A stretch of 64,000 nucleotides of DNA from the NCBI GenBank assembly GCA_965115855.1, contig OZ220470.1:1743385-1807384 (forward strand), given 5' to 3'. Both the position numbers and the translations under genes were made by a program. A model generated the notes under the pieces. It searched no databases and was not told the DNA's origin. It worked only from the letters and a program-made list of their open reading frames with translations. Each line of letters opens with the position of its first letter. The first letter of the stretch is position 1. Below, one piece after another: positions 1-26,921 of this stretch. Source of the DNA: Vicinamibacteria bacterium. Its GTDB lineage: Bacteria; Acidobacteriota; Vicinamibacteria; Marinacidobacterales; Marinacidobacteraceae.

Positions 1-458
1 CCCTGGATGGAGACCTCCGATCCCGGCTGGAGGACCATGCCGCCCTGCCGGACACCGCGGTCGCAGCGGTGTCCGCGCGGATCGAACGCGAGATCCAGGA
101 TCTCGGCGACGAGGACGCCGCCGCGTTCCGCCGCGAGATCGGGGTGGAAGCCGGAGCCGCTTCGCGGGTGATCCGCGCGATCTTCGAGCTCGTGGACCGC
201 GCGACCTTCTATACGGCAGGAGACACCGAAACCCGCGCCTGGCTCATTCGACGCAACACCCGGGCGCAGGAAGCTGCCGGGACCATCCACTCCGACATGG
301 AGCGGGGATTCATCCGGGCCGAGGTGGTCGCCTTTGACCGGCTGGTGGAACTCGGGTCCTGGGACGCCTGCCGCAAGAAGGGCGCGCTTCGGCTGGAGGG
401 ACGCGACTACCCGGTCCAGGACGGGGATGTCCTGGTGATCCGGTTCAACGTGGGCTGA
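1..458 (+). CDS. ychF: Ribosome-binding ATPase YchF (Obg-family GTPase), 3'-partial; C-terminal TGS domain
   Basis: ORF 69..458 continues in frame to window start; C-terminal motif ...TFYTAGDTETRAWLIRRNTRAQEAAGTIHSDMERGFIRAEVV...DYPVQDGDVLVIRFNV matches YchF C-terminus. Confidence 0.85.
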   Translation, partial: LDGDLRSRLEDHAALPDTAVAAVSARIEREIQDLGDEDAAAFRREIGVEAGAASRVIRAIFELVDRATFYTAGDTETRAWLIRRNTRAQEAAGTIHSDMERGFIRAEVVAFDRLVELGSWDACRKKGALRLEGRDYPVQDGDVLVIRFNVG

Positions 459-475
459 GTCCCGGCGCGGCGGAC

Positions 476-504
476 GGGTTGCGCAAGAGGGGACCGGCTG
501 CTAG
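476..504 (+). promoter_or_regulatory. Putative sigma70-like promoter for first S8 protease gene (TTGCGC-17nt-TAGCTT)
   Basis: -35/-10-like hexamers with 17-nt spacer in intergenic gap upstream of 517; weak match only. Confidence 0.25.
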
Positions 505-516
505 CTTCGCCGCATC

Positions 517-2904
517 GTGCGAATCATGTCCCCCATCCGAATTCTGCTTGTAGTCGCCATGATGGGCGGCTGTTCCCCGCGGCGCGCCATGACCCCGACC
601 CCGCCCACACTTCCTCCCCCGGCGCCGGGAGGCGCCAACCCGGATCCCGGGTCCGGAGTCTCGACCCCTCCGGAAACGAAGCCACCGCCCCCGCCGCGCG
701 GCCTCCCGGAGGCGCCGGAGGACATCTGCATTCCAACCCACGCCAACGGCTGCGTTCCCGCCCCCGAGTTCAACAAGATGGCGACGGAGAAGGCTCCGAA
801 CTACGCCAGGCACCCCAATTTCGAGGAGCAGTGGGGACTCGAATCCATCAATGCCCATCTCGCGTACGCACACGTCAATCTGCTGGAAGGGCCGGATGCC
901 GCGCCGGGCGACGGCGTCACCATCGGCATCATCGACAGCGGCATCGACACGGAGCATCCGGCCTTCGAGGGCAAGAAGATTCACCTGGAGTTGCTGCTCG
1001 GAACCAAGGGAGATACCGGGGAGGACATCTCCCACGGTACTGCGGTGGCGAGCGTCGCAGCCGGCAATCGGACCTCCGAACCAAGGGCGTCGCACGGGGT
1101 CGCATGGGGGGCCGACCTTGCCGTCTGGGCGATCCCGCTCGGCTCGGGGGATGGGAAATACGAGCCGATCACGCTGGCGACACTCGCGGAAACGGACGCT
1201 GAATTTGCCGAACTCCTGGAGCCGGTATTCGCCTGGAGCGACGGAGAACGGACCGTCGACATCCTGAACCTGAGCTTCGGCTACGACGGCCTGATCGACG
1301 CATACACCGCAGAGGGCCTTCGCGCGAACTTGCCGAAAACGATCGCCGCCCTCGCCCAGGGGAGTGCATCCGACAAGACGATCCTGGTGTGGGCAGCCGG
1401 AAATTCCCACGAAAGCTGGTGTGAGGAGGGCGTTCCGAACTGCATGGACAACAAGATCGACGCCGTCTCGGTTGACATCCTCCCGGGCTTGGTGGCGCGG
1501 CTCGAGGAGCTCCAGGGGCACACCGTCGCGGTCGTGGCCCTGGGCCCGAACGGGGGCGGGATCGCCAGTTTCTCGAACCGCTGCGGCATCGCCGCCGACT
1601 TCTGCATCGCGGCTCCGGGATCCCGGATCGGATACGCCTACTTCGGGCCCATTGGCCGGGAAGACGGAGTCCGGACCTACGATCAGGGGGACGGGACTTC
1701 GTTCGCCGCTCCGATGGTCGCGGGCGGACTCGCAGTCATGAAACACCTCTTCCGGGATCAGCTCACGAGCGAGGAACTGGTGACGCGCCTCTTCGCAACC
1801 GCCGATGACACCGGCATCTACGCCGACCGATCGATCTACGGCAACGGCCGCATGGACCTCGGCGCCGCCACCTCTCCCGTCGGCGTGCTCGGCGTTCCCA
1901 TCGAGACCACCGGCGCCCTCGCCACCGGGCAAGCCGCCCTCCAGTCCACCCGACTGCGCCTCGGCGCCGCCTTCGGCGACGGAATCCAGGACGCCCTCGA
2001 CGACCACGAGATCATGTCCCTCGACAGCCTCGGCGCCCCCTTCTGGCATCGCCTCGACGGATTCGCGGTCACGACCGACGGCCCCTCGATGGCGGCCCGG
2101 CTCCGCAGCTTCCTCGGCCCCGACTCCGGATCGGCGTTCCCCGGCGGTGGAAACCTCCAACCCGGGGTCACGGGAGTCCGCAGCGACATCCTGCGGATGC
2201 CCACCGCCACCGGCAGCGGGCACCTTGCACTCGCCGAGGGTGCGGTGATGTTCAGCGCCGTCGGCCACGGCGGCCTCTCCGCCACCGCGTTCACCACCGG
2301 GAACTGGCGCGCCGGAATGCCGGCCGCCGGCGCCGCCTTCGGTTGGCGACCGGGCAACCTTCCGGTCGGGATCCGCGCCGGCTGGATCGAGGAGCGGGAG
2401 ACGCTGCTCGGCAGCATGGGTCACGGGGCGTTCGGGAACCTCTCCGCCACCACCGGCTTCCTCGGGATCGACGGCGGAGTGCAGCTGGGCCGCTGGCGGC
2501 TCGGTGGCAGCGGCGAGTTCGGCATGGCCCGCCCCGAGGTCCACGGGGGAATCATCCAGGACATCTCGACGCTCGCCACCACCGCGTTCTCGGTGCACCT
2601 CGGAACCACGCTGGCGGATGCCGGCTCGCTGGAGTTTTCGGTGTCGCAGCCGCTGCGGGTGGAGGCCGGCCAGGCCGCGCTTCAAGTGCCGGCGGCCCGC
2701 ACCCGGCAGGGGACGGTGACCTATCACGGGTTCACAGCCGATCTGGCCCCCGGGAACCGCTGGATCGACCTGGCCGCACAATGGAACCGGCGTCTCGGTC
2801 CGGGGGAGTTCCGGTTGGGAGCGATCCGCAGCCACCGGGCGGGCCACCGGAAGGCGCTCGGCGCGCCGATGGCCCTCCTCTCCGGCTGGCGATGGACCTT
2901 CTGA
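517..2904 (+). CDS. Subtilisin-like serine protease (peptidase S8) lipoprotein with C-terminal autotransporter-like beta-barrel domain, copy 1
   Basis: Signal peptide + lipobox (VVAMMGGC); catalytic D (IGIIDSGID), H (SHGTAVAS), S (GTSFAAPMV) motifs; C-terminal ~300 aa of alternating beta-strand pattern ending ...SGWRWTF (aromatic-X-Phe OMP signature). Confidence 0.8.
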   Translation: MRIMSPIRILLVVAMMGGCSPRRAMTPTPPTLPPPAPGGANPDPGSGVSTPPETKPPPPPRGLPEAPEDICIPTHANGCVPAPEFNKMATEKAPNYARHPNFEEQWGLESINAHLAYAHVNLLEGPDAAPGDGVTIGIIDSGIDTEHPAFEGKKIHLELLLGTKGDTGEDISHGTAVASVAAGNRTSEPRASHGVAWGADLAVWAIPLGSGDGKYEPITLATLAETDAEFAELLEPVFAWSDGERTVDILNLSFGYDGLIDAYTAEGLRANLPKTIAALAQGSASDKTILVWAAGNSHESWCEEGVPNCMDNKIDAVSVDILPGLVARLEELQGHTVAVVALGPNGGGIASFSNRCGIAADFCIAAPGSRIGYAYFGPIGREDGVRTYDQGDGTSFAAPMVAGGLAVMKHLFRDQLTSEELVTRLFATADDTGIYADRSIYGNGRMDLGAATSPVGVLGVPIETTGALATGQAALQSTRLRLGAAFGDGIQDALDDHEIMSLDSLGAPFWHRLDGFAVTTDGPSMAARLRSFLGPDSGSAFPGGGNLQPGVTGVRSDILRMPTATGSGHLALAEGAVMFSAVGHGGLSATAFTTGNWRAGMPAAGAAFGWRPGNLPVGIRAGWIEERETLLGSMGHGAFGNLSATTGFLGIDGGVQLGRWRLGGSGEFGMARPEVHGGIIQDISTLATTAFSVHLGTTLADAGSLEFSVSQPLRVEAGQAALQVPAARTRQGTVTYHGFTADLAPGNRWIDLAAQWNRRLGPGEFRLGAIRSHRAGHRKALGAPMALLSGWRWTF

Positions 2905-2980
2905 CCCGCGGCCATCGAAGACGGACGCGATGTGCCCCGGGCGGATCGGGCGCGTCCCGCTGGCGGCGCCGGCGCCCATC

Positions 2981-5392
2981 ATGACCGGAACCGGATACAC
3001 CGCTTGGATCCTGATCGTGGCTGGCGCGCTCGGCGCTTGCTCGGCGCGTTCTTCAAAGACCCCGGCCGTTCCCCCGGCGGGTGGGAATCCGGCCCCGCCG
3101 CCAGCAGTTCCGCCGGTGGAGCCGCCTCGCCCGCTCCGTCCGGTTCCTCCACCGCGCGGCCTCCCGGAGGCGCCGGAGGACGTCTGCATTCCGACCCATG
3201 CGAGCGGCTGCGTTCCCGCCCCCGAGTTCAACCGGATGGCGACGAAGAAGGCGCCCGACTACACCGCGCACTCCGGCTTCAAGGCGCAGTGGGGGCTCGA
3301 GTCCATCAACGCGCATGTCGCCTATGCCCACGTGAATCTGCTGAAGGGGCCGGACGCGGCGCCAGGCGCCGGCGTCGTCATCGGCGTGATCGACTCCGGC
3401 ATCGACACCGAACATCCGGCCTTCAAGGGCAAGACGATTCACGAGGAATTCCTGCCCGGAACCACGAGGGAAACCGGGGAGGAATTCTCCCACGGCACCG
3501 CGGTGGCAAGCGTCGCAGCCGGCATGCGAATCTCCGACCCCGACGCCGCCCACGGAGTCGCCTGGGGGGCGGATCTTGCCGTCTGGGCAACTCCGCCCAA
3601 GGAACTGACGGCCGAACCGGTCACCCTGGAGGAACTCGCCGGGGATGACGACTGGATCGCCTCGATCTTCCGGCCGGCCCTCACCTGGAGCAGCGGAGGA
3701 CGATCCGTCGACATCCTGAACCTGAGCTTCGGCTACAACGGCGTGATCGACGCATACTCCGAGGAAGACCTTCGCGCGAACCTGCCGAAAACGATCGCTG
3801 CGCTCGCCCAGGCGGATGCACCCGACAAGACGATCCTGGTGTGGGCGGCCGGAAATGGTCACGGCGGGGGGATCGACGCGGACGAGGCAAACACCGCCGG
3901 GATCGCCGGAAGGAGGATGGCCGGGAAGGAACACCGCGAAGGCGACGCCGTCTCGGCCGTGATCCTTGCGGGACTCGCGGCGCGCATCGAGGAACTCCGT
4001 GGGCACACGGTCGCGGTGGTCGCCCTGAGTCCCGACGGAGGCGGGATCACCCATTTTTCGAACCGCTGCGGCATCGCCGCCGACTTCTGCATTGCCGCAC
4101 CCGGAGAAACCGTGAGGGTCGCCTCGTTCGGACCCGCACCCGGGGAACCGAACGGAGTCCGGGGCCATGGGGACGAGGAGGGGACATCCTTCGCCGCTCC
4201 AATGGTCGCGGGCGGACTCGCGGTCATGAAACATCTCTTCCGGGATCAGCTCACGAGCGAAGAACTGGTGACGCGCCTCTTCGCAACCGCCGATGACACC
4301 GGCATCTACGCCGACCGATCGATCTACGGCAACGGCCGCATGGACCTCGGCGCCGCCACCTCCCCGGTCGGCGTGCTCGGCGTTCCCATCGAGACCACCG
4401 GCGCCCTCGCCACCGGGCAAGCCGCCCTCCAGTCCACCCGACTGCGCCTCGGCGCCGCCTTCGGCGACGGAATCCAGGGCGCCCTCGACGACCACGAGAT
4501 CATGTCCCTCGACAGCCTCGGCGCCCCCTTCTGGCATCGCCTCGACGGATTCGCGGTCACGACCGACGGCCCCTCGATGGCGGCCCGGCTCCGCAGCTTC
4601 CTCGGCCCCGACTCCGGGTCGGCGTTCCCCGGCCGTGGAAACCTCCAACCCGGGGTCACCGGAGTCCACGGCGACATCCTGCGGATGCCCACCGCCACCG
4701 GCAGCGGGCACCTTGCGCTCGCCGAGGGTGCGGTGATGTTCAGCGCCGTCGGCCACGGCGGCCTCTCCGCCACCGCGTTCACCACCGGGGACTGGCGCGC
4801 CGGAATGCCGGCCGCCGGCGCCGCCTTCGATTGGCGACCGGGCAACCTTCCGGTCGGGATCCGCGCCGGCTGGATCGAGGAGCGGGAGACGCTGCTCGGC
4901 AGCATGGGTCACGGGGCGTTCGGGAACCTCTCCGCCACCACCGGCTTCCTCGGGATCGACGGCGGAGTGCAGCTGGGCCGCTGGCGGCTCGGTGGCAGCG
5001 GCGAGTTCGGCATGGCCCGCCCCGAGGTCCACGGGGGAATCATCCAGGACATCTCGACGCTCGCCACCACCGCGTTCTCGGTGCACCTCGGAACCACGCT
5101 GGCGGATGCCGGCTCGCTGGAGTTCTCGGTATCGCAGCCGCTGCGGGTGGAGGCCGGCCAGGCCGCGCTTCAAGTGCCGGCGGCCCGCACCCGGCAGAGG
5201 ACGGTGACCTATCACGGGTTCACAGCCGATCTGGCCCCCGGGAACCGCTGGATCGACCTGACCGCGCAATGGAACCGGCGTCTCGGTCCGGGGGAATTCC
5301 GGCTGGGAGCGATCCGCAGCCACCGGGCGGGTCACCGGAAGGCGCTCGGCGCGCCGATGGCCCTCCTCTCCGGCTGGCGATGGACCTTCTGA
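2981..5392 (+). CDS. Subtilisin-like S8 protease lipoprotein/autotransporter-like, copy 2
   Basis: Start chosen at MTGTGYTAWILIVAGALGAC (lipobox) inside ORF 2930..5392; same D/H/S catalytic motifs; distinct insertion GNGHGGGIDADEANTAGIAGRR; identical C-terminus ...WRWTF. Confidence 0.8.
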   Translation: MTGTGYTAWILIVAGALGACSARSSKTPAVPPAGGNPAPPPAVPPVEPPRPLRPVPPPRGLPEAPEDVCIPTHASGCVPAPEFNRMATKKAPDYTAHSGFKAQWGLESINAHVAYAHVNLLKGPDAAPGAGVVIGVIDSGIDTEHPAFKGKTIHEEFLPGTTRETGEEFSHGTAVASVAAGMRISDPDAAHGVAWGADLAVWATPPKELTAEPVTLEELAGDDDWIASIFRPALTWSSGGRSVDILNLSFGYNGVIDAYSEEDLRANLPKTIAALAQADAPDKTILVWAAGNGHGGGIDADEANTAGIAGRRMAGKEHREGDAVSAVILAGLAARIEELRGHTVAVVALSPDGGGITHFSNRCGIAADFCIAAPGETVRVASFGPAPGEPNGVRGHGDEEGTSFAAPMVAGGLAVMKHLFRDQLTSEELVTRLFATADDTGIYADRSIYGNGRMDLGAATSPVGVLGVPIETTGALATGQAALQSTRLRLGAAFGDGIQGALDDHEIMSLDSLGAPFWHRLDGFAVTTDGPSMAARLRSFLGPDSGSAFPGRGNLQPGVTGVHGDILRMPTATGSGHLALAEGAVMFSAVGHGGLSATAFTTGDWRAGMPAAGAAFDWRPGNLPVGIRAGWIEERETLLGSMGHGAFGNLSATTGFLGIDGGVQLGRWRLGGSGEFGMARPEVHGGIIQDISTLATTAFSVHLGTTLADAGSLEFSVSQPLRVEAGQAALQVPAARTRQRTVTYHGFTADLAPGNRWIDLTAQWNRRLGPGEFRLGAIRSHRAGHRKALGAPMALLSGWRWTF

Positions 5393-5639
5393 CCCGCCTT
5401 CGCTGATCGGGGCCCCGTCCCGGGATGGCCCTCCATCCCGACGCCCCGGGCGGGTCCCTCCGGGCGACCAGGGGCGAGCACACCTTCCGGGCGGACCGAT
5501 CCGGATCACCGGCTCTCCCAACCACCATGCGGCGCCGGCCCGCCACTGGATTCGCGGCGACGGCGCCGAAGCGGGGCGCCGGGCTCCCGGGAAAGCGAAA
5601 GCTGCAGTCCTGGTCCGTCGCTTGCATGGGATGCCCGCC

Positions 5640-7997
5640 ATGACAAGAACCGAATTCTCCATCCGGATTCTGGTCGTGGCGGGCATGTTCAGCGCCTGTT
5701 CGTCGCGTTCCCCGAAGACGCCGACCGTTCCTCCGGCGGCCGGGAATCCGACACCCCCGCCCGCTACGGCGCCGGAACCGGATCCCGCTACGCCTCCCAC
5801 TCCGCCTCCCCCGCCGCGCGGCCTCCCGGAGGCGCCGAAGGACATCTGCATTCCGACCCATGCAGGCGGCTGCGTTCCCGCACCGGAGTTCAACCGGATG
5901 GCGACGGAGAAGGCGCCCGACTACGCCGGGCATTCCGGCTTCAAGGCGCAATGGGGGCTCGAGTCCATCAACGCGCACCTGGCCTACGCGCACGTGAACC
6001 TGCTGAAGGGGCCGGACGCGGCGCCGGGCGAAGGGGTCACCATCGGCCTGGTCGACTCCGGCATCGACACCGAACATCCGATCTTCAAGGGCAAGACGAT
6101 TCACGAGGAATTCCCGCCCGGCGCCACCGAAGAGACCGGAGAGGAATTTTCCCACGGCACCGCAGTGGCGAGCGTCGCGGCTGGTATCCGGACCTCCGAT
6201 CCGGACGCCCCCCACGGGGTCGCCTGGGGAGCGGATCTGGCTGTCTGGTCGATGCCGCGCGAGGCGCCGGAGGGAACCGAAGACGACTCGTGGGCCGCGA
6301 TCTTCGAACCCGTCTTCGCCTGGAGCACCGGTGAGCGAACCGTCGACATCCTGAACCTGAGCGTTGGCAACCCGGACCTGATCGACGATTTCAGCGAAGA
6401 GGACCTCCGCGCCCGCTTTCCGAAGACGATCGACACCTTGGCCCAGGCGGGTAAGCCCGACAAGACGATCCTGGTGTGGGCAGCCGGCAATTTGCACGGC
6501 AGTGACTGTGAAGCGGGACGTTCGCACTGCGTGGACGGCAAGCTTGACGCCGACTCGGTCACGACGTTTCCGGGATTCGCCGCCCGCATCGAGGAACTCC
6601 GCGGGCACACGGTGGCCGTGGTCGGCCTGAGCTCGGACGGAGGCGGGATTGCCAGTTTCTCGAACCGTTGCGGCCTCGCTGCCGATTTCTGCATCGCCGC
6701 TCCCGGCGAAGACACGAGGATGGCCACGTTCGGCCCCGTCAAGAAAGGGGACCCGAACGGAGTCCGGGGCTACGCGAGCGAGGACGGGACATCCTTCGCC
6801 GCCCCGATGGTCTCGGGCGGACTCGCGGTCATGAAGCAGCTCTTCCGGGATCAGCTCACAAGCGAGGAACTGGTAACCCGACTCTTCGCAACCGCGGATG
6901 ACACCGGCATCTACGCCGACCGCACGATCTACGGCAACGGCCGCATGGACCTCGGCGCCGCCACCTCCCCGGTCGGCGTGCTCGGCGTCCCCATCGAAAC
7001 CACCGGCCTCCTGGCAACCGGCAACGCCGCCCTCCAGTCCACCCGACTGCGCCTCGGCGCCGCCTTCGGTGACGGCATCCAGGATGCCCTCGACGACCGC
7101 GAGATCATGTCCCTCGACAGCCTCGGCGCCCCCTTCTGGCATCGCCTCGACGGGTTTGCGGTCACGACCGACGGCCCCTCGATGGCGGCCCGGCTCCGCA
7201 GCTTCCTCGGCCCCGACCCGGGGTCGGCGTTCCCTGGCGGCACCGGCCTTCAGCCGCCCGCTGCCGGGGTCCGCAGCGACATCCTGCGGATGCCCACTGC
7301 CACCGGTAGCGGGCACCTTGCGCTCGCCGAGGGCGCGGTGATGTTCAGCGCCTTCGACCACGGCGGCCTCTCCGCCACCGCGTTCACCACCGGGAATCGG
7401 CGCGCCGGCATGCCGGCTGCTGGCGCCGCCTTCGGCTGGCGACCGGGCAACCTTCCGGTCGGGATCCGCGCCGGCTGGATCGAGGAGCGGGAGACCCTGC
7501 TCGGCAGCATGGGTCACGGGGCGTTCGGGAACCTCTCCGCCACCACCGGCTTCCTCGGGATCGACAGCGGAGTCCAGGTGGGCCGCTGGCAGCTCGGAGG
7601 GAGCGGCGAGTTCGGCATGGCCCGCCCCGAGGTCCACGGGGGAATCATCCAGGACATCTCGACGCTCGCCACCACCGCGTTCTCGGTGCACATCGGAACC
7701 ACGCTGGCGGATGCCAGCTCGCTGGAGTTTTCGGTATCGCAGCCGCTGCGGGTGGAGGCCGGCCAGGCCGCGCTTCAAGTGCCGGCGGCCCGCACCCGGC
7801 AGGGGACGGTGACCTATCGCGGGTTCACAGCCGATCTGGCCCCCGGGAGCCGCTGGATCGACCTGACCGCGCAATGGAACCGGCGTCTCGGTCCGGGGGA
7901 GTTCCGGTTGGGAGCGGTCCGCAGCCACCAAGCCGGCCACCGGAAGGCGCTGGGAGCGCCGATGGCCCTCCTCTCCGGCTGGCGATGGACCTTCTGA
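5640..7997 (+). CDS. Subtilisin-like S8 protease lipoprotein/autotransporter-like, copy 3
   Basis: Start MTRTEFSIRILVVAGMFSAC (lipobox) within ORF 5622..7997 (alt start 5622); catalytic triad motifs; C-terminal beta-domain. Confidence 0.8.
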   Translation: MTRTEFSIRILVVAGMFSACSSRSPKTPTVPPAAGNPTPPPATAPEPDPATPPTPPPPPRGLPEAPKDICIPTHAGGCVPAPEFNRMATEKAPDYAGHSGFKAQWGLESINAHLAYAHVNLLKGPDAAPGEGVTIGLVDSGIDTEHPIFKGKTIHEEFPPGATEETGEEFSHGTAVASVAAGIRTSDPDAPHGVAWGADLAVWSMPREAPEGTEDDSWAAIFEPVFAWSTGERTVDILNLSVGNPDLIDDFSEEDLRARFPKTIDTLAQAGKPDKTILVWAAGNLHGSDCEAGRSHCVDGKLDADSVTTFPGFAARIEELRGHTVAVVGLSSDGGGIASFSNRCGLAADFCIAAPGEDTRMATFGPVKKGDPNGVRGYASEDGTSFAAPMVSGGLAVMKQLFRDQLTSEELVTRLFATADDTGIYADRTIYGNGRMDLGAATSPVGVLGVPIETTGLLATGNAALQSTRLRLGAAFGDGIQDALDDREIMSLDSLGAPFWHRLDGFAVTTDGPSMAARLRSFLGPDPGSAFPGGTGLQPPAAGVRSDILRMPTATGSGHLALAEGAVMFSAFDHGGLSATAFTTGNRRAGMPAAGAAFGWRPGNLPVGIRAGWIEERETLLGSMGHGAFGNLSATTGFLGIDSGVQVGRWQLGGSGEFGMARPEVHGGIIQDISTLATTAFSVHIGTTLADASSLEFSVSQPLRVEAGQAALQVPAARTRQGTVTYRGFTADLAPGSRWIDLTAQWNRRLGPGEFRLGAVRSHQAGHRKALGAPMALLSGWRWTF

Positions 7998-8274
7998 CCC
8001 GCCGTTGCTGATCGGGGACCACCGTCTCCGGAGTGGACTCCACCCCGCGATCCACCCTTGGCGTACCGGGCGCGTCCTTCCGGAAGACTCCGGGCAACCA
8101 GGGAACGCGCGCGCCTGTCGCGCGAACCGATCCGGGCGGCAGCGGACGGCGCATTTTCCGAAGCAGAACCCCGGCGTCGAGCCTGGAAACTCCGGCCCCC
8201 GGTTCAAGACCGCCCCGCCCGGTTGGCCCACGGCTTGCTTTGGTCAGGGAACATCTACACGGAGGTCCCACACG

Positions 8275-10668
8275 ATGACAAACACCGAATACGCAACCCG
8301 GATTCTGATCCTGGCCGCGGTGATTGGCGGCTGCTCGTCACGAAGTGTCACAAGACCGACCACTCCACCAGCGGGAGCCCAGCCGGAACCGGGGGCCGTG
8401 GCCTCGGTTCTTCCGGTAACGGAGAACACCTCGCCGCCGCCGCGCGACCTCCCGGAAGCGCCGGAGGACGTCTGCATTCCGACCCATGCGAACGGCTGTG
8501 TTCCCGCCCCCGAGTTCAACAAGATGGCGACGGAGATGGCCCCGGACTACGCCAAGCACTCCGGCTTCAAGGCGCAGTGGGGGCTCGAATCCATCAACGC
8601 CCACCTCGCGTACGCGCACGTGAACCTGCTGGAGGGGCCGGATGCAGCCCCGGGCGATGGCGTCACCATCGGTGTCATCGACAGCGGCATCGATACCGAG
8701 CATCAGGCCTTCGAGGGCAAGGACATCCACTTGGAGTTGCTTCTTGGAACCAAGGGAGACACCGGGGAGCACACCTCCCACGGCACCGCGGTAGCGAGCA
8801 TCGCGGCGGGAACTCGCACCTCCGAACCCAATGCGCCGCACGGAGTCGCGTGGGGCGCCGACTTGGCGGTCTGGGCGATCCCGCTTGGAACCGCCACGCA
8901 ATACGAGCCGATAACGTTGGCGGAACTCGCGGAATCGGATGCCGAGTTCGCCGACATCCTCAAGCCGGCCTTCGCCTGGAGCGACGGAGAGCGGACCGTC
9001 GACATCCTGAACCTGAGTATCGGCTACCACGGCCTGATCGACGCATATACCGTGGAAGATCTTCGCGCGAACATGCCGAAAACGATCTCCGCCCTCGCCC
9101 AAGCGGATTTGTCCGACAAGACGATCCTGGTGTGGGCGGCCGGAAATGCCCATGGGGCCCTTTGCAGCGAAGGGGCTCCAAACTGTGTGGATAAAAAGAT
9201 GGACGCGGTGTCAGTCGACATTCTCGCAGGCCTCGTGACGCGGCTCGAGGAACTCCAGGGGCATTCCATCGCCGTCGTCGCCCTGGACCCGAACGGAGGC
9301 GGGATTGTCAGTTTCTCGAACCGCTGCGGCATCGCCGCCGACTTTTGCATTGCGGCCCCCGGCGCGGAAATCGGACACGCCTTCTTCGGGCCCAAGGGCC
9401 GATTAAGCGGAGACTCGGAAAACAAGGAAACCGCCCGCGGATGGAGTATCGGGGGGGGGACTTCCTACGCCGCCCCGATGGTCTCGGGCGGACTCGCGGT
9501 CATGAAGCAGCTCTTCCGGGATCAGCTCTCGAACCAGGAACTGGTAACCCGACTCTTCGCAACCGCCGACAACACCGGCATCTACGCCGACCGCACCGTC
9601 TACGGCAACGGCCGCATGGACCTCGGCGCCGCCACCTCACCGGTCGGAGTGCTCGGTGTCCCCATCGAAACCACCGGCCTCCTGGCAACCGGCAACGCCG
9701 CCCTCCAGTCCACCCGACTGCGCCTCGGCGCCGCCTTCGGTGACGGCATCCAGGATGCCCTCGACGACCGCGAGATCATGTCCCTCGACAGCCTCGGCGC
9801 CCCCTTCTGGCATCGCCTCGACGGGTTTGCGGTCACGACCGACGGCCCCTCGATGGCGGCCCGGCTCCGCAGCTTCCTCGGCCCCGACCCGGGGTCGGCG
9901 TTCCCTGGCGGCACCGGCCTTCAGCCGCCCGCTGCCGGGGTCCGCAGCGACATCCTGCGGATGCCCACTGCCACCGGTAGCGGGCACCTTGCGCTCGCCG
10001 AGGGCGCGGTGATGTTCAGCGCCTTCGACCACGGCGGCCTCTCCGCCACCGCGTTCACCACCGGGAATCGGCGCGCCGGCATGCCGGCTGCTGGCGCCGC
10101 CTTCGGTTGGCGACCGGGCAACCTTCCGGTCGGAATCCGCGCCGGCTGGATCGAGGAGCGGGAGACGCTGCTCGGCAGCATGGGTCACGGGGCGTTCGGG
10201 AACCTCTCCGCCACCACCGGCTTCGTCGGGATCGACAGTGGAGTCCAGGTGGGCCGCTGGCAGCTCGGAGGGAGCGGCGAGTTCGGCATGGCCCGCCCCG
10301 AGGTCCACGGGGGAATCATCCAGGACATCTCGACGCTCGCCACCACCGCGTTCTCGGTGCACCTCGGAACCACGCTGGCGGATGCCAGCTCGCTGGAGTT
10401 TTCGGTGTCGCAGCCGCTGCGGGTGGAGGCCGGCCAGGCCGCGCTTCAAGTGCCGGCGGCCCGCACCCGGCAGGGGACGGTGACCTATCGCGGGTTCACA
10501 GCCGATCTGGCCCCCGGGAGCCGCTGGATCGATCTGACCGCGCAATGGAACCGGCGTCTCGGTCCGGGGGAGTTCCGGTTGGGAGCGGTCCGCAGCCACC
10601 AAGCCGGCCACCGGAAGGCGTTGGGAGCGCCGATGGCCCTCCTCTCCGGCTGGCGATGGACCTTCTGA
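8275..10668 (+). CDS. Subtilisin-like S8 protease lipoprotein/autotransporter-like, copy 4
   Basis: ATG at 8275 preceded by GGAGG (8261-8265); MTNTEYATRILILAAVIGGC lipobox; catalytic motifs; C-terminal 1.1 kb nearly identical to copy 3. Confidence 0.8.
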   Translation: MTNTEYATRILILAAVIGGCSSRSVTRPTTPPAGAQPEPGAVASVLPVTENTSPPPRDLPEAPEDVCIPTHANGCVPAPEFNKMATEMAPDYAKHSGFKAQWGLESINAHLAYAHVNLLEGPDAAPGDGVTIGVIDSGIDTEHQAFEGKDIHLELLLGTKGDTGEHTSHGTAVASIAAGTRTSEPNAPHGVAWGADLAVWAIPLGTATQYEPITLAELAESDAEFADILKPAFAWSDGERTVDILNLSIGYHGLIDAYTVEDLRANMPKTISALAQADLSDKTILVWAAGNAHGALCSEGAPNCVDKKMDAVSVDILAGLVTRLEELQGHSIAVVALDPNGGGIVSFSNRCGIAADFCIAAPGAEIGHAFFGPKGRLSGDSENKETARGWSIGGGTSYAAPMVSGGLAVMKQLFRDQLSNQELVTRLFATADNTGIYADRTVYGNGRMDLGAATSPVGVLGVPIETTGLLATGNAALQSTRLRLGAAFGDGIQDALDDREIMSLDSLGAPFWHRLDGFAVTTDGPSMAARLRSFLGPDPGSAFPGGTGLQPPAAGVRSDILRMPTATGSGHLALAEGAVMFSAFDHGGLSATAFTTGNRRAGMPAAGAAFGWRPGNLPVGIRAGWIEERETLLGSMGHGAFGNLSATTGFVGIDSGVQVGRWQLGGSGEFGMARPEVHGGIIQDISTLATTAFSVHLGTTLADASSLEFSVSQPLRVEAGQAALQVPAARTRQGTVTYRGFTADLAPGSRWIDLTAQWNRRLGPGEFRLGAVRSHQAGHRKALGAPMALLSGWRWTF

Positions 10669-10813
10669 CCCGCCGCCGTGATCGACCGTCTCCAGGGCGG
10701 GATCGGCGCCCCGCGCCATCCCGGGTGATCGGCGGCGACGAGCTTCCCGGGGAGCGAACGTTCCGTCCCTTGTCTTGCGACAGTCTGGCCCACTGTTTGC
10801 CATTGTGCCCCCC

Positions 10814-13153
10814 ATGACCAGAGCCGAATATGTAATCCGGATTCTGATCGTGGCGGGCATGCTCAGCGCCTGCTCATCGCGTCCCCCGAAGACCCCGACC
10901 GTTCCAGCGGCCGGGAATCCGACACCCCCGCCATCAGCCAAGGCGCCGGAACCGGATCCCGCTCCGCCTCCCCCGTCGCGCGGCCTCCCGGACGCGCCGA
11001 AGGACGTCTGCATTCCGACCCATGCAAACGGCTGCGTTCCCGCTCCCGAGTTCAACCGGATGGCGACAGAGAAGGCGCCCGACTACGCCGGGCACTCCGG
11101 TTTCAAGGCGCAGTGGGGGCTCGAATCCATCAACGCGCACCTCGCCTACGCGCACGTGAACCTGCTGAAGGGGCCGGACGCGGCCCCGGGTGAAGGGGTC
11201 ATCATCGGCCTGGTCGACTCCGGCATCGACACCGAACATCCGGCCTTCGAGGGCAAGACCATTCACCAGGAGTTCCTGCTCGGAACCACCAGGGAAACCG
11301 GGGAGGAATTCTCCCATGGCACTGGGGTGGCAAGCGTCGCGGCCGGCATGCGAATCTCCGACCCCGACGCCGCACATGGAGTCGCCTGGGGGGCGGATCT
11401 TGCCGTCTGGGCGACTCCGCGCCCGGATTTGAAGGACGAGTCGATCACCTTGGCGGAACTCGCCGGGGAGGACGACTGGATCGCCTCGATCTTCCAGCCG
11501 GTCCTCGCCTGGAGCAGCGGAGGACGATCCGTCGACATCCTGAACCTGAGCTTCGGCTACGACGGCCTGATCGACGCATACTCCGAGGAAGGCCTTCGCG
11601 CGAACTTGCCGAAGACGATCGCCGCCCTCGCCCAGGCGGATGCACCCGACAAGACAATCCTGGTATGGGCGGCCGGGAATGGCCACGGCGGCAAGATCGA
11701 CGCCACCTCGGCCATGATCCTCGCAGGACTCGCGGCACGCATTGAGGAACTCCGTGGACACACGGTCGCGGTGGTCGCCCTGAGTCCCGACGGGGGCGGG
11801 ATCACCAATTTTTCGAACCGCTGCGGCATCGCCGCCGACTTCTGCATTGCCGCACCCGGGGAAGAGGTGAGAGTCGCCTCATTCGGGCCCGCACCGGGGG
11901 AACCGAACGGAGTCCGGAGCCACGAGGACGGGGCAGGGACGTCCCTTGCCGCCCCAATGGTCTCGGGCGGACTCGCGGTCATGAAGCAGCTCTTCCGGGA
12001 TCAGCTCACAAGCGAGGAACTGGTGACCCGACTCTTCGCCACCGCCGACAACACCGGCATCTACGCCGACCGCACCGTCTACGGCAACGGCCGCATGGAC
12101 CTCGGCGCCGCCACCTCCCCGGTCGGCGTGCTCGGCGTCCCCATCGAAACCACCGGCGTCCTGGCGACCGGCAACGCCGCCCTCCAGTCCACCCGACTGC
12201 GCCTCGGCGCCGCCTTCGGTGACGGCATCCAGGATGCCCTCGACGACCGCGAGATCATGTCCCTCGACAGCCTCGGCGCCCCCTTCTGGCATCGCCTCGA
12301 CGGGTTTGCGGTCACGACCGACGGCCCCTCGATGGCGGCCCGGCTCCGCAGCTTCCTCGGCCCCGATTCCGGGTCGGCGTTCACCGGCGACGGCGGCGCC
12401 AGCCTGCACCCGACCACCGCCGGGGTCCGCAGCGACATCCTGCGGATGCCCACCGCAACCGGCAGCGGGCACCTCGCCCTCGCCGAGGGGGCAGTGATGT
12501 TCAGCGCCTTCGGCCAGGCCGGCCTCTCCGCCACTGCGTTCACCACCGGAAACCGGCGCGCGGGAATGCCGGCCGCCGGTGCCGCCTTCGGCTGGCGACC
12601 GGGCGACCTTCCGGTCGGGATCCGCGCCGGCTGGATCGAGGAACGGGAGACCCTGCTCGGCAGCATGGGCCACGAGGCGTTCGGGAACCTCTCCGCCACC
12701 ACCGGCTTCGTCGGGATCGACAGCGGAGTCCAGGTGGGCCGCTGGCGGCTCGGCGGCAGCGGCGAGTTCGGCATGGCCCGCCCCGAGGTCCACGGGGGAA
12801 TCATCCAGGACATCTCGACGCTCGCCACCACCGCGTTCTCGGTGCACCTCGGGACCACGCTCGCGGATGCCGGCTCACTGGAGTTTTCGGTATCGCAGCC
12901 GCTGCGGGTGGAGGCCGGCCAGGCCGCGCTTCAAGTGCCGGCGGCCCGCACCCGGCAGGGGACGGTGACCTACCGCGGGTTCACGACCGATCTGGCCCCC
13001 GGAAATCGCCAGATCGACCTGACCGCACAATGGAACCGGCGACTCGGTCCGGGGGAATTCCGGTTGGGAGCGGTCCGCAGCCACCGAGCCGGACACCGGA
13101 AGGCGCTGGGCGCGCCGATGGCCCTCCTCTCCGGCTGGCGATGGACCTTCTGA
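10814..13153 (+). CDS. Subtilisin-like S8 protease lipoprotein/autotransporter-like, copy 5
   Basis: Start MTRAEYVIRILIVAGMLSAC within ORF 10775..13153; catalytic motifs; shares GNGHGG insertion type with copy 2. Confidence 0.8.
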   Translation: MTRAEYVIRILIVAGMLSACSSRPPKTPTVPAAGNPTPPPSAKAPEPDPAPPPPSRGLPDAPKDVCIPTHANGCVPAPEFNRMATEKAPDYAGHSGFKAQWGLESINAHLAYAHVNLLKGPDAAPGEGVIIGLVDSGIDTEHPAFEGKTIHQEFLLGTTRETGEEFSHGTGVASVAAGMRISDPDAAHGVAWGADLAVWATPRPDLKDESITLAELAGEDDWIASIFQPVLAWSSGGRSVDILNLSFGYDGLIDAYSEEGLRANLPKTIAALAQADAPDKTILVWAAGNGHGGKIDATSAMILAGLAARIEELRGHTVAVVALSPDGGGITNFSNRCGIAADFCIAAPGEEVRVASFGPAPGEPNGVRSHEDGAGTSLAAPMVSGGLAVMKQLFRDQLTSEELVTRLFATADNTGIYADRTVYGNGRMDLGAATSPVGVLGVPIETTGVLATGNAALQSTRLRLGAAFGDGIQDALDDREIMSLDSLGAPFWHRLDGFAVTTDGPSMAARLRSFLGPDSGSAFTGDGGASLHPTTAGVRSDILRMPTATGSGHLALAEGAVMFSAFGQAGLSATAFTTGNRRAGMPAAGAAFGWRPGDLPVGIRAGWIEERETLLGSMGHEAFGNLSATTGFVGIDSGVQVGRWRLGGSGEFGMARPEVHGGIIQDISTLATTAFSVHLGTTLADAGSLEFSVSQPLRVEAGQAALQVPAARTRQGTVTYRGFTTDLAPGNRQIDLTAQWNRRLGPGEFRLGAVRSHRAGHRKALGAPMALLSGWRWTF

Positions 13154-13460
13154 CCCGCCCTCGCTGACAGGGGGGACGTGCACGCAACCCCGAGATCCTG
13201 AACGACGGCCTCACCAAGCCATGCATCGGATCCCCGGAACCTGGCTGCCTCTTCGGGCCGTACCGGTCCCCGGGGGCGAGACGTCTCCGGAAGCACGGGA
13301 GCCGTTCCCGCAAGAAGCCTTCATCCACGGATCGTGGAGTTGCTGCGCGTCCCGGTCGGAACCCTTTGCCCAACCATCAGACCTGGTCCGAGGGCGAGGC
13401 CGGCCGACTCGGGAAGCCCCCGCGGGCGCGACGTATAAAGACGGCGCGAGCCGATCCGGA

Positions 13461-16400
13461 TTACGGGACCATCTCCGGCTCCGGATTCTCCGCCGCCTCC
13501 CGATGGGAATCCCGGTGCGCCTGGATCTCTTCGGGAAGCAGGAACCGGCGGTGTTCGCGGAGCCCGGAACCGGCCGGGACCAACCGGCCCATGATCACGT
13601 TCTCCTTGAGTCCGCGCAGGTAGTCCACCTTGCCATTCAGCGCGGCGTCGGTGAGCACCTTGGTGGTCTCCTGGAATGATGCGCCGGAAATGAAGCTGTC
13701 GGTGGCGAGCGAGGCCTTGGTCAAACCGAGCAACATCGGTTCCCCCTGAGCCGGCTTTCCCCCTTCCTGCTGCGCCTTCTGGTTCGCCTGGGCGAATTCA
13801 TGGCGCTCGATGACCGCGTCCACGATCAGTTCGGTATCTCCGACATCGGTCACCCGCACCCAGCGCATCATCCGGCTGATGATCACCTCGATGTGCTTGT
13901 CGTCGATCACGACCCCCTGGAGGCGGTACACCTCCTGGACCTCGTGCACCAGATACCGCTGGAGCTCCCCCTCGCCAAGCACCCGGAGGATATCGTGGGG
14001 GTTGCGTGGTCCGTCCATCAAGGGATCGCCGGCCCGCACGTCTTCCCCTTCCCGCACGCTGATGTGCACTCCGCGGGGAACCTCGTACTCGCGCACATCG
14101 TCGGTGACCTGGGAAATCACCCGGATCACCCGCTTGCCCTTGCGGATTTCACCGTGCTCGAGACGCCCGTCGATCTCGCTGATGAGAGCCGGGGAACGCG
14201 GCGGGCGGGCCTCGAAAAGCTCCACCACCCGGGGCAAACCGCCGGTGATGTCCTTGGTCTTGGTCGTCTCCCTCGGAATCTTTGCCAGCACATCGCCCGG
14301 ATGGACCACATCGTCCGGACCGACCTCCAGGTGGGCGCGCGACGGCATCAGGTAGCTGCGCAGCACTTCCCCGTCGGCGCCGACGATATGGATTCGCGGC
14401 TCGCGGGTATCGTCTTGGGATTCGATGATGACTGCCTGGGAGCGGAAGGTGACGGGATCCACCTCCTGCACCATGGTGATGTCGGGAAGGATGTCCTCGA
14501 ACTTCACGACTCCGCCCTCTTCGCCGAGGATCGAGAAACTGTAGGGATCCCACTCCACGATGATCTGTCCGGCGGTCACCTTGCCGCCTTCGGCCGTCTT
14601 GATCCGGGCGCCGTATACCACCGGATGGTTCTCCAGCGCGTGGCCGTGTTCCCCGACGACTTCGATCGCGCCAGCCCGATTGATCACCACCAGGTTGCCA
14701 TGCCGGTCCTCCACCGTGCGCAGATCCGAAAGACGAATGACCCCGTCGTGCCTGGCCTCGATCGCCGAGTTCTCGAACACGCTTGCGGTCCCGCCGATGT
14801 GGAAGGTGCGCATGGTGAGCTGGGTGCCGGGTTCGCCGATGGACTGCGCCGCGATGATCCCCACCGCCTCGCCGAGATCCACCAGCCGCCGGGTCGCCAG
14901 GTTGCGTCCATAGCACTTCGCGCAGACACCGCGAACTGCCTCGCAAGTCAACACCGAACGGATCTTGACGCGCGGGACGCCGGACGCCTCGATGTCGCTC
15001 GCCTTCTCTTCCGAGATCTCTTCCCCCGCATCCACGATCAGTTCGCCATGGAAATCCTTGACCTGCTCGAGACTCACCCGACCGACGATCCGGTCCTGAA
15101 GGGGTTCGATGACCTCCCCGGCCTCGATGATGGGCTCGGCGTAGATCCCGCGCGGCGTGGCGCAATCCACCATCGTCACGATGACGTCCTGGGCGACGTC
15201 CGCAAGACGCCGGGTCAGATATCCGGCATCCGCGGTGCGCAGGGCGGTGTCCGCAAGCCCCTTGCGGGCGCCGTTGGTGGAAATGAAGTACTGGATGACG
15301 CTCAAACCCTCGCGGAAGTTGCTGGTGATGGGCGTCTCGATGATCTCCCCGGAGGTCTTGGCCATCAGTCCGCGCATGCCGGCAAGTTGCCGGATCTGCT
15401 TCTCGCTTCCGCGCGCGCCGGAGTCCACCATCATGAACACCGGATTGAAACGCCCGGTCTCCTGCTCGCGGGACTCCATGGTGGCGAGCATGTCCTCCGC
15501 CACCTTGTTCGTGGCGCCCGACCAGACATCGATGACCTTGTTGTAGCGCTCGCCCTTGGTGATGGCGCCCTCCTGGTACTGCTCGTCCACCCGACCGACC
15601 TCGGCCTTCGCCGCCTCCACCAGACCCACCTTGTTGGGGGGCACCACCAGATCCCCGAGACCGATCGAGGCGCCGCTCCGGGTCGCGTACTCGAAGCCGA
15701 GTTCCTTGAGTTCGTCAAGAATGACGCCGGTCTCTTCGAGGTCGTAACGCAGATGGATATAGCGAACCAGGCTCTGGATGCCCCGCTTCCTGAGCACACC
15801 GTTCACGAACGGCATGTCGGCGGGAAGGCGCTCGTTCAGGATCACCCGGCCCACGGTGGTGCGGATCCGCTCCCCGTCCATGCGAACCGGTTCCATCCGG
15901 GTGAGGTTCTGGCTGTCGTGAGTCTCGAGCACCTCACCGGTACAGCGCAGGGAAATGGGGGTCAGGGTCCCCACCGAACCGCTGTCCCGGGCGAAGAGCA
16001 CTTCATCCACCGACCCGAACGACTTGATCTCCTTCGGGGGGATGACCTGGGGCTTGGTGAGGTAGTAGAGCCCGAGAACCATGTCCTGGGTCGGGACGGC
16101 CAGCGGACCGCCGTGGGCCGGTGAAAGGATGTTGCGCGAGGACCGCATCAGGAGAGCGGCCTCGGCCTGGGCTTCCGGAGATAGCGGCACATGCACCGCC
16201 ATCTGGTCGCCATCGAAGTCGGCGTTGAACGCGCTGCAGACCAGCGGGTGGATACGGATTGCCTTTCCCTCCACCAGCACCGGTTCGAAAGCCTGGATGC
16301 CGAGCCGGTGGAGGGTCGGAGCGCGATTCAGCAACACCGAATGGTCGCGGATGACCTCCTCCAGATAGTCCCAGACTTCGGGACGCTGCTCTTCGACAAG

Positions 16401-17798
16401 TTCCCGCGCCTGCTTGATGGTGGCCGCCAGCCCCTCGTGCTCCAGTCGGTTGAACAGGAACGGCTTGAAGAGCTCGAGGGCCATCTTCTTGGGAAGCCCG
16501 CACTGGTGCAGCTTCAGCTCCGGCCCGACCACGATGACCGAACGGCCGGAATAGTCCACCCGCTTGCCGAGAAGATTCTGTCGGAACCGGCCCTGCTTGC
16601 CCTTGAGGGTGTCCGAGAGGGACTTGAGCGGACGGCTGTTGGCGCCCTTGATCACCCGCCCCCGGCGGCCGTTGTCGAAAAGCGCGTCCACCGCCTCCTG
16701 CAGCATCCGCTGCTCGTTGCGCACGATGACGTCCGGCGCGCGCAACTCCAGCAGCCGCTTCAGACGGTTGTTGCGGTTGATGACCTTCCGGTAGAGCTCG
16801 TTCAGATCGCTGGTGGCGTAACGGCCGCCATCGAGCTGGACCAGCGGTCGAAGGTCCGGCGGGATGACGGGAATCGCCTCCATGATCATCCATTCCGGCA
16901 GGTTGCCGGAACGCCGGAAGGCATCCACCACCTTGAGCCGCTTGGCGGCCTTGGCCCGCTTCTGGATCGACTTCGCTTCCCGCATGTCCACGCGCAGCGT
17001 GACCGAAAGTTCGTCGAGATTCGCTGCTCGCAACAGCTCCTTGACTGCCCCGGCGCCCATCCCCAACCGATAGACTGTTCCCGGACGGCGCATCTTCTCC
17101 CGGAACTCGTTGTCGGTCCGCCCGAACAGCCTCTTCAGCAGCCGATCCTGTTCGTCGGTGACCACCTGACCCACGCGGAGCGTTCCCAGCCGGATGGTGC
17201 GAATCCGGTACTCGTCGTCATCATGATCCACCGCGAAGGCGAACAGCGACTGGAGCAGCTCCACATCCTCGCGCAGCAGCTTCTGGTCCTGCTCCTTGAG
17301 CAACTCCAGGTCCAAGTCACCGGGCTCGAGCACCACATGGGACTCGTAGTACAGGACCCGTTCGAGTTCCCGGGGGGTGAGATCAAGGATCTGCCCGATT
17401 CGGCTGGGTGGCACCTTGAAGAACCAGACATGCGAGACCGGACACGCCAATTCGATGTGTCCCAAACGGTTGCGGCGCACCGAAGCCTGAGTGACTTCGA
17501 CCCCGCACTTGTCGCAGATCACGCCCCGGTGCTTCATGCGCTTGTACTTGCCGCACAGGCATTCCCAATCGGTGACCGGTCCGAATATCTGCGCGCAGAA
17601 GAGGCCGCCGCGCTCCGGTTTCTGCGTCCGGTAATTGATCGTCTCGGCCTTCGTCACCTCGCCATGGGACCAGGCACGGACCCGCTCCGGAGACGCGATC
17701 GAAATCTTGATCGCGTCGAAATCGGAGCTGAACGCCTCTTTCTCCTCGAGTTCCGGGAATACGCCGGTCGCGTCGCGACTCGTGGGTTGCGTGGACAT
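13461..17798 (-). CDS. rpoC: DNA-directed RNA polymerase subunit beta'
   Basis: 1445 aa; N-terminus ...[49 protein letters not shown]... (zinc-binding), NADFDGD active-site motif. Confidence 0.97.
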
Positions 17799-22035: not shown

Positions 22036-22204
22036 GGAAAACACCGCGGACGGACATTTCCGGGCCGGAATTCCAGCCTGGACACGCCCCCGGAAGACAC
22101 CCGGCGCCGGGCGCCCGCCATCAGCAGGCACCCGGCCGCCGGAGGAAGAAGGAAGACCCGTCGGATCCGGGAAAAGGCCACAGCCACCAAATCGTTACTG
22201 CGAC

Positions 22205-25168: not shown

Positions 25169-25210
25169 GGGCGCGCTCCCCCGTTTCGCGGCCGGCGCAC
25201 CGGCGGGTGG

Positions 25211-26849: not shown

Positions 26850-26921
<72 letters not shown>

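Follow-up and report, generated by a model that had tools for sequence, protein, structure and literature searches.

The window analysed here is a stretch of 64,000 nucleotides (nt) of contig OZ220470.1 from an uncultured Vicinamibacteria bacterium (Acidobacteriota), and the subject of this study is an array of five intact genes, g1 to g5, located in tandem on the plus strand at 517–13153, between the 3' end of ychF (plus strand) and rpoC (minus strand). According to the open reading frame (ORF) listing the genes comprise 779–820 codons, and their likely limits were set from an alignment of the copies together with the lengths of matching database proteins. All five encode putative lipoproteins with a subtilisin-like S8 protease domain followed by a C-terminal module predicted to form an outer-membrane beta-barrel; in public records such proteins are annotated just as "S8 family serine peptidase".

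The first gene, g1 (517–2904), encodes 795 amino acids (aa) from a GTG start, or from an ATG at 526, and contains the lipobox MGGC (Cys codon at 571), a Peptidase_S8 match (E = 9e-34) covering aa 131–444 (nt 907–1848) and the C-terminal module at 1840–2901. Its paralog g2 (2930–5392, 820 aa) has the lipobox LGAC (Cys codon 3038), the Peptidase_S8 match at 3365–4336 (E = 5e-31) and the module at 4328–5389, and in g3 (5640–7997, 785 aa), which gives a 100% match to the database protein P0001, the corresponding features are FSAC (Cys codon 5697), 6027–6941 (E = 3e-35) and 6933–7994. The start of g4 (8275–10668, 797 aa) was placed from a 797-aa database protein and the alignment; this paralog contains IGGC (Cys codon 8332), a Peptidase_S8 match at 8653–9612 (E = 7e-31) and the module at 9604–10665. 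The last paralog, g5 (10814–13153, 779 aa), contains LSAC (Cys codon 10871), a Peptidase_S8 match at 11189–12091 (E = 2e-30) and the module at 12083–13150.

A search with Pfam gave matches to Peptidase_S8 (PF00082) of 106–122 bits for all five copies, compared to a gathering cut-off of 21.8 (E = 1e-30 to 3e-35). When aligned, the motifs DSGID, SHGT, AAGN and GTS[FYL]AAP are identical across the five copies and hold in 56 homologues as well, all of which keep the residues D135, H168, N280 and S381; the Asp/His/Ser triad and the oxyanion Asn accordingly stand in their canonical motifs in every copy, which places all five among the subtilases. In the N-termini a charged n-region precedes a hydrophobic core that leads to a lipobox-like sequence [MLFI][GS][GA]C, and a Pro-rich stretch of ~40 aa comes next. 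Position -3 of the lipobox is atypical in g1 (M) and g3 (F). The cysteine is kept in the family consensus (LGGCSS, and CGGGGG in distant members), and the five proteins are predicted to be lipidated at this residue.

The best match to the protease domain in PDB is the passenger of Ssp, a subtilase autotransporter of Serratia (8e7f; profile E = 8e-20, Foldseek E = 4e-19 at 22% identity). Scans of the S8 domain against NCBIfam gave sub-threshold matches to the mycosin model TIGR03921 (79–81 bits, model cut-off 278.75) and weak matches to the autotransporter peptidases EprS and fusolisin. All cysteines in the protease half occur in close pairs, 7–8 residues apart (CIPTHxxGC, CxxGxxNC and CGIAADFC). 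Autotransporter passengers tolerate only closely spaced cysteines, so this arrangement fits the tolerance of such passengers and is consistent with export.

The C-terminal module of ~350 aa is composed of a subdomain of ~75 aa, a variable loop and a barrel of ~240 aa. An AlphaFold2 model of the g3 module (354 aa, window positions 6933–7994), built as a single-domain input with 61 diverse homologues, reached a predicted local distance difference test score (pLDDT) of 90.8 and a predicted template modelling score (pTM) of 0.88, while a full-length model (pLDDT 67.7) was good for the S8 domain only and returned only subtilases in a fold search. DSSP assignment of the module model showed a small alpha/beta subdomain at residues ~17–92, with near-invariant GDG...EI..FD.LGAPFW motifs, then a loop of variable length at ~93–111 (to ~127 in the alignment) and finally ~14 long antiparallel strands reaching the C-terminus. 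Both faces of the barrel carry short loops in the model and in the alignment, and neither a beta-helix stalk nor an autochaperone nor a long linker helix is present in the models. The top structural matches of the module are OmpT, OmpG, CymA, OprP and FadL-like channels.

All five copies end with LLSGWRWTF and the family consensus with LLAGWRxxF. The C-terminal sequence WRWTF fits the beta-signal pattern of outer-membrane proteins; such an aromatic-ended signal, present in all copies, is a feature of most outer-membrane barrels and is therefore not discriminating for autotransporters. On the basis of the model it is close to certain that the module is an outer-membrane beta-barrel anchor. In an earlier interpretation made from the DNA alone (the sequence-only reading) the five tandem paralogs, their S8 domains with conserved D/H/S residues, the lipobox signals and the WRWTF ends had all been recognised, and every one of these is borne out by the results above. 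The C-terminal domain had been described there as beta-rich and of ~300 aa, with a soluble, non-barrel fold as the outcome that would have spoken against it; the fold predicted here is a barrel and the beta-rich character stands, while the length has to be corrected to ~350 aa.

Among 62 barrel-family representatives 59 carry an S8 domain, which is the sole type of cargo found. Longer members owe their length to a second or third S8 stretch or to extensions at the N-terminus; in P0162, P0159 and P0187 (1095–1287 aa) two or three Peptidase_S8 stretches precede a single C-terminal barrel module.

When analysing the DNA identity between copies along the alignment, two different parts of the genes appeared, with 45–95% identity over the first ~1250 columns and 83–100% beyond. 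The 207 parsimony-informative sites dividing the copies 2:3 were counted before and after column 1250, and the split {g1,g4} was found at 60 sites before but 1 after this column and {g2,g5} at 20 before and 2 after, whereas {g1,g2} was found at 3 before and 39 after and {g3,g4} at 6 before and 22 after. The same conflict was seen in neighbour-joining (NJ) trees of the five copies and six outgroup genes, constructed for two protease and two C-terminal sub-segments. The protease sub-segments group (g1,g4) with bootstrap values of 98–100, (g2,g5) with 100 and (g2,g3,g5) with 96–100, and the C-terminal sub-segments group (g1,g2) with 92–99 and (g3,g4) with 98–100. Maximum chi-square analysis was significant for all six tested triplets (permutation p ≤ 0.0005), with breakpoints at the protease/barrel junction (window positions ~1657, 4189, 9462 and 11921) and further ones at 6986–7008 in g3 and 11213–11243 in g5.

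The homogenised tracts could be delimited for both gene pairs, all on the plus strand. The tract of g1 (1701–2904, breakpoints ~1657–1701) is 98.1% identical to that of g2 (4189–5392), with 23 differences in 1209 columns, and the breakpoint in g2 lies at 4189/4190 (left 194:45, right 9:84, p ≤ 0.0005). Likewise, the tract of g3 (6794–7997) is 98.2% identical to that of g4 (9465–10668), with 22 differences in 1209 columns and an identical run of 257 nt, and the breakpoint in g4 lies at 9462–9465 (left 174:73, right 6:76, p ≤ 0.0005). In g5 a partial tract in common with g3 and g4 extends over approximately 11953–12370, with 95–100% identity in columns ~1276–1690, including a 200-nt identical run in columns 1489–1688, and 83–90% thereafter. 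The 5' block of g5 (10814–11243), encoding the signal peptide, the Pro-rich linker and the start of the protease, groups with g3 and not with g2 (breakpoint 11213–11243, left 13:52, right 141:74, p ≤ 0.0005). For g1/g2 and g3/g4 the identity stops at the stop codon, and the intergenic spacers of the array, 25–277 nt in length, are mutually unrelated except for a common CCCGC after the stop codon.

The synonymous divergence (dS) between g1 and g2 is 0.039 in the C-terminal half compared to 0.476 in the protease half, and between g3 and g4 the values are 0.039 and 0.682, the protease halves ranging over 0.26–0.68 as a whole. This drop points to recombination and not merely to stronger constraint, and indicates that the barrel-coding halves have been repeatedly homogenised by gene conversion, between g1 and g2, between g3 and g4 and partly between g5 and g3/g4. 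Independent events with common boundaries are explained by the tracts beginning in similar barrel sequence and ending where homology collapses. A single unequal crossover was also considered for the order of the protease types (A-B-C-A'-B'), but no simple one-step model fits, so that several events are required. A similar pattern is found in the relatives, where the C-terminal halves of the two copies at the locus L005 and of the two unlinked copies at L003/L004 cluster by genome (bootstrap 100), while the protease halves of the L005 pair cluster weakly or not at all in NJ trees. Since conversion stops at the protease/barrel junction the protease halves retain an older divergence, which leaves the catalytic heads free to diverge. 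The grouping of the protease insertions proposed in the sequence-only reading (copies 1+4, 2+5 and 3) was reproduced exactly and so were its C-terminal variants (1+2 versus 3+4, which g5 partly joins); its suggestion of repeated gene conversion or recombination is now supported by the conflicting trees (92–100), the breakpoint analysis and the dS contrast.

The differences between the protease domains are clustered in the segment after AVWAxP, in the LS[FV]G[YN] strand, in the loop after AAGNxHG and in the loop before the catalytic GTS. In the loop after AAGNxHG, g1, g3 and g4 contain a Cys loop, in g2 an insertion 11 aa longer is found in its place and in g5 it is deleted. By analogy with the subtilisin structure these variable segments would line the substrate cleft, and it is plausible that the five proteases differ in cleavage specificity.

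To relatives of these proteins a word-indexed protein search gave 2356 hits, and an exhaustive search with the module among 1.84 billion proteins gave 1003 cluster representatives (E ≤ 1e-3), nearly all with the module at the C-terminus of a protein of ~750–850 aa. A survey of one-genome-per-species bacterial genomes, in which the best 80 of 201 stretches were kept, gave 77 distinct loci (designated by L numbers), all 77 from uncultured metagenome-assembled genomes (MAGs). The named taxa are Vicinamibacteria/Ca. Marinacidobacterium, Binatia, Thermodesulfobacteriota ("Deltaproteobacteria"), Spirochaetia, Nitrospirales and Alpha- and Gammaproteobacteria, and the module family spans at least seven phyla. 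The closest relatives, at 72% identity, belong to Ca. Marinacidobacterium/Vicinamibacteria. Many isolate names (bin61/bin75, SB06xx, RHO, IRC, APA and Plut) are those of what we take to be sponge or coral MAG series. The SB06xx series is sponge-associated (PMC7883664), and the source organism of the window is probably a marine sponge symbiont. A literature search for the module family, including its occurrence in sponge symbionts, gave nothing specific.

The family tree is mostly coherent by phylum with few mixed placements, for example a Pseudohongiella sequence within Binatia. Within 10 kb of the protease gene, 14 of the 77 loci, which belong to several phyla, contain an ORF resembling a P4-type tyrosine integrase, identified from its N-terminal sequence only (L007, at 4526–5836, and L010, L014, L017, L032, L036, L038, L041, L048, L053, L054, L056, L069 and L078), and an AAA_14-type ATPase ORF is found near the protease gene in 10 of the 77. 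Some family members may thus sit on mobile islands, and the coherent tree together with the integrases suggests mostly vertical descent in symbiont lineages with some transfer. No neighbouring gene is conserved across phyla among the 77 loci, only lineage-specific synteny being found, which fits a self-sufficient protein.

The number of copies was scanned in 78 loci with 10-kb flanks. Most loci contain one copy, several contain two and L010, L014, L016 and L039 contain three, which makes the five copies of the window the largest array. At the ychF–rpoC site of the relatives one copy is found in L002 and L003 and two in L001 and L005; among these relatives Ca. Marinacidobacterium sp. OZ241856 has one and Vicinamibacteria OZ244068 two. 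Relative to the genes of the syntenic relatives the five window copies are monophyletic (bootstrap 91–100, NJ), and by these trees the array is a recent, lineage-specific tandem expansion. That five copies are unusually many, as had been remarked from the sequence, holds within the family, where other loci have 1–3; multiple copies are normal for the family, though, and five are unexceptional among outer-membrane paralog families generally.

Other arrays show further patterns. One Binatia MAG (isolate 1f458a18) has seven members at L039, L069 and L073 (3+2+2), and the second copies of L069 and L073 belong to a very divergent subfamily, 35–36% identical to g3. Fragmented or frameshifted members adjoin intact ones in L009 (4034–6209), L030 (9483–10570), L031 (8491–10678), L032 (7501–8011) and L042 (12478–14979), which suggests that arrays also lose copies in a birth-and-death pattern. 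In another acidobacterial lineage an old three-gene array (L014, 7622–14524, and L016, 10001–16981) is orthologous copy by copy, with no concerted evolution of whole genes, unlike the lineage of the window.

Taken together, the array is best interpreted as a set of lipid-anchored subtilases with a barrel anchor of their own, displayed at the surface and combining anchors kept uniform by gene conversion with divergent catalytic heads, and the probability of this interpretation is put at roughly 0.6. Export by Sec and processing of the lipobox by signal peptidase II would give an N-terminal lipid anchor followed by the ~40-aa Pro-rich tether and the predicted active subtilase domain, with the Ssp passenger as its nearest solved relative. 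The C-terminal module (LGAPFW subdomain, variable loop and ~14-strand barrel) would then be inserted in the outer membrane by the beta-barrel assembly machinery (BAM), where the barrel most likely would both anchor the protease and display it on the surface. The logic of display would be like that of an autotransporter while the barrel family itself appears unrelated in sequence to the type Va beta-domain, and the odds that the protease is exposed at the cell surface in such a manner are judged slightly better than even. Conversion between neighbours would homogenise the barrel-coding halves, with tracts ending at the protease/barrel junction, and the older protease divergence would be concentrated in loops beside the catalytic residues. 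The outcome would be a panel of five proteases of differing specificities on one conserved anchor, which in a sponge or coral would plausibly digest or process proteins of the host or of the extracellular space.

Several observations weigh against this interpretation. With strands even in number the barrel has its N-terminus on the periplasmic side, and together with the lack of a long pore helix and with a segment before the first strand that varies by up to ~25 aa among homologues, the simplest topology keeps the protease periplasmic; how many strands there are and where the ~75-aa subdomain lies are both read from DSSP only. In the protease halves the overall ratio of nonsynonymous to synonymous divergence (dN/dS) is 0.24–0.43, which rules out gene-wide positive selection, and the corresponding ratio of proportions (pN/pS) is at least 1 only in a few 30-codon windows with small substitution counts, which leaves diversifying selection on the protease halves undemonstrated. 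A promoter scan of the array found no sigma-70-like promoters, and in a terminator scan the terminator-like matches fall within the genes. The sponge or coral habitat, finally, is taken from MAG names, SB06xx being the sole series checked in a paper.

The topological observations lead to the alternative that survives best, although it is considered unlikely, at less than half the weight of the surface-display interpretation. Here the protease faces the periplasm, with the lipid anchor and the S8 domain both inside, and the barrel, plugged by the ~75-aa subdomain, is an anchor or a gated channel, for example for peptides that the protease makes or imports. N-terminal domains on the periplasmic side are found in BamA, LptD, BcsC and PgaA. 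A pTM as high as 0.88 suggests that the subdomain sits on the barrel or inside it in the manner of a plug, the length variation before the first strand would be odd for a segment threading a pore, the top structural matches are channels and not translocator domains, and the barrel is found with S8 cargo only, whereas classical autotransporter barrels carry many kinds of passengers. With a lipid anchor, a long Pro/Gly-rich tether and a barrel, however, an enzyme of the periplasm would be fixed to one membrane twice over, for no obvious reason. The protease domain is moreover closest to a secreted autotransporter passenger, the diversification of active-site loops in five paralogs fits varied external substrates better, and no linked partner or substrate gene is present.

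A second alternative, that the genes are highly divergent true type Va autotransporters, kin of NalP and SphB1, with a 12-strand beta-domain that has drifted beyond the reach of Pfam and hidden Markov models, is quite improbable, though the fold would allow it. The domains follow one another as in NalP and SphB1, which are subtilase autotransporters that carry a lipid (PMC9977779). Ssp is the nearest match of the S8 domain, and the short loops on both faces of the barrel are as in autotransporter barrels. The sequence comparisons are all negative, though. The C-terminal module matched no Pfam family at all, even at E = 10, and PF03797 in particular matched neither the module alone (E ≤ 10) nor any of the five array proteins nor, at E ≤ 0.1, any of 62 diverse family members, while the autotransporter barrels of E. 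coli Ag43 and YfaL, used as positive controls, scored 1e-22 to 1e-35. TIGR01414 was not listed at E ≤ 1 for the two window proteins scanned against NCBIfam, and a profile of the module family found no PDB sequence at E ≤ 10 despite the many autotransporter barrels deposited. Comparison with the Ag43/YfaL barrels by hhalign gave a probability of 0.08%, a weak negative as the target alignment held two sequences only. The ~14 strands and the lack of a stalk, autochaperone and long linker helix point in the same direction, and from these comparisons the barrel is not demonstrably an autotransporter beta-domain and has no detectable sequence relationship to one. The sequence-only reading had likened the architecture of the proteins to that of autotransporter subtilases such as NalP and SphB1, which process other surface proteins; the likeness in overall architecture stands, whereas membership of that family is undemonstrated, and surface export and a processing of other surface proteins by the array products are putative.

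That the mosaic is an artefact of assembly (mis-joined repeats or a strain chimera in an uncultured MAG, where 1.2-kb tracts at 98% identity could mislead short-read assemblers), or results from purifying selection on the barrel without recombination, is very improbable indeed, as all five proteins are recorded on a single contig of 3,016,700 bp, the sister genomes were assembled from long reads as circular contigs (with names such as ctg10137_37x_c), the units differ by 15–50% in protease halves and spacers and are thus easily placed, equivalent homogenisation of C-terminal halves is seen in the two L005 copies and in L003/L004, and selection by itself can neither cut synonymous divergence roughly 7- to 17-fold nor yield conflicting topologies at 92–100% bootstrap.

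Beyond the interpretation of surface-displayed proteases with a shared anchor, a wider proposal can be made with less confidence, and it is tentative. The module might be a device, not described before, that serves specifically to secrete or anchor lipoprotein subtilases, comparable to type V secretion yet of separate evolutionary origin. It might then be a hallmark of sponge and coral symbionts across phyla (Acidobacteriota, Binatia, Spirochaetia, Nitrospirales and Alpha-/Gammaproteobacteria), partly spread by islands that carry integrases and expanded into specificity panels directed against host matrix or immune proteins.

In the surroundings of the array the upstream gene at 1–457 (plus strand) is the 3' end of ychF, with a translation ending ...GDVLVIRFNVG*, and a YchF-GTPase_C gene is located at the equivalent place in the relatives L001 and L002. 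Downstream, rpoC (13461–17798, minus strand) is a 1445-aa ORF with RNA_pol_Rpb1 genes at the equivalent position in the same two relatives. In L001 an aminotransferase gene (14697–15884) is located between the protease array and rpoC, where the window has a spacer of 307 nt (13154–13460), and the rpoC and rpoB calls in L002 (1979 and 1683 aa) are much longer than the window ORFs at the equivalent positions (1445 and 1439 aa). Three minus-strand ORFs antisense to the protease genes (445–3231, 3053–5893 and 5220–8231), of 928–1003 codons and with low-complexity translations rich in Arg, Gly and Pro, are best read as by-products of the 68–71% G+C content rather than as genes. Genes for tRNAs (Trp, Thr, Gly, Tyr and Thr) are clustered on the minus strand at 25208–27407, beyond the large ORF (17812–22131) following rpoC, and a lone tRNA-Gln is found at 36971–37044; a scan of the window with Rfam put no further family above the gathering score.

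A low-GC island (0.51–0.57 compared to ~0.68 elsewhere) contains two paralogous ORFs, 49543–51846 (plus strand, 767 aa) and 52563–54824 (minus strand, 753 aa). Both have a lipobox-like N-terminus and (PA)n/(PEPK)n repeats, followed by ~190 aa identical between the copies, by a middle part rich in Cys that has diverged and by a C-terminus that is conserved (...FAKCTVE), and a Pfam search gave only sub-threshold matches to proline-rich repeats. They are a second case of partly homogenised surface-protein paralogs in the window and were probably acquired horizontally.

These results describe a large family of outer-membrane barrels without a Pfam model and tied to lipoprotein subtilases, which may be a route for placing an enzyme on the surface of diderm cells independently of classical autotransporters. 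Since it occurs in at least seven phyla, in uncultured bacteria that often have sponge or coral MAG names, it is a candidate for a niche-specific factor in nutrition or host interaction. The array is also a clean example of concerted evolution restricted to a domain, the membrane anchor being homogenised and conversion stopping at the domain boundary. Should the protease face the periplasm, or the barrel prove to be a divergent domain of the autotransporter type, no more than an ordinary expansion of paralogs would be left, while the interest of the finding would rise if the module is a means of surface display in its own right and specific to symbionts of invertebrates.

When comparing with known systems, NalP of Neisseria meningitidis and SphB1 of Bordetella pertussis resemble the array genes in the order of lipobox, subtilase and C-terminal barrel and in being single genes without partners. 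Both are lipidated and cleave other surface proteins (PMC9977779). They have a 12-strand barrel of the PF03797 type, as opposed to ~14 strands (by DSSP) unrelated to PF03797 or TIGR01414, and a linker helix, stalk or autochaperone in place of the conserved ~75-aa subdomain before the barrel; their hosts are proteobacterial pathogens, whereas the present family occurs in uncultured symbiont-type Acidobacteriota and others. Among solved structures, Ssp of Serratia marcescens (PDB 8e7f) matches the protease domain best, in the S8 core only (template modelling score 0.41, normalised to the length of Ssp), and differs in its beta-helix stalk and classical autotransporter barrel and in being a non-lipoprotein cytotoxin of a pathogen. 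The mycosins of type VII secretion (TIGR03921) are the top NCBIfam model for the S8 domain and are also membrane-anchored subtilases, but they have a C-terminal transmembrane helix, belong to monoderm/mycobacterial envelopes, have neither barrel nor lipobox, and the score is far under the cut-off.

For the pattern of evolution the likeness lies elsewhere. In babA/babB and other Hop genes of Helicobacter pylori and in the tandem pmp clusters of Chlamydia a conserved C-terminal barrel is homogenised by conversion while the N-terminal domains diverge. The domains exposed in those families are adhesins of pathogens, subject to immune selection, whereas here the corresponding domains are proteases, catalytically intact as judged by their motifs, in a probable invertebrate symbiont, and the array gave no evidence of phase variation or antigenic variation. 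An expansion of extracellular S08A subtilases has also been described in sponge-associated Thaumarchaeota (Ca. Nitrosospongia ianthellae), where it was read as mixotrophy or host interaction (PMC6790972). The archaeal enzymes have no outer-membrane barrel and are often located beside serpins, and the increased copy number of secreted subtilisin-like proteases in a sponge symbiont is thus a convergent theme and not a homologous architecture.

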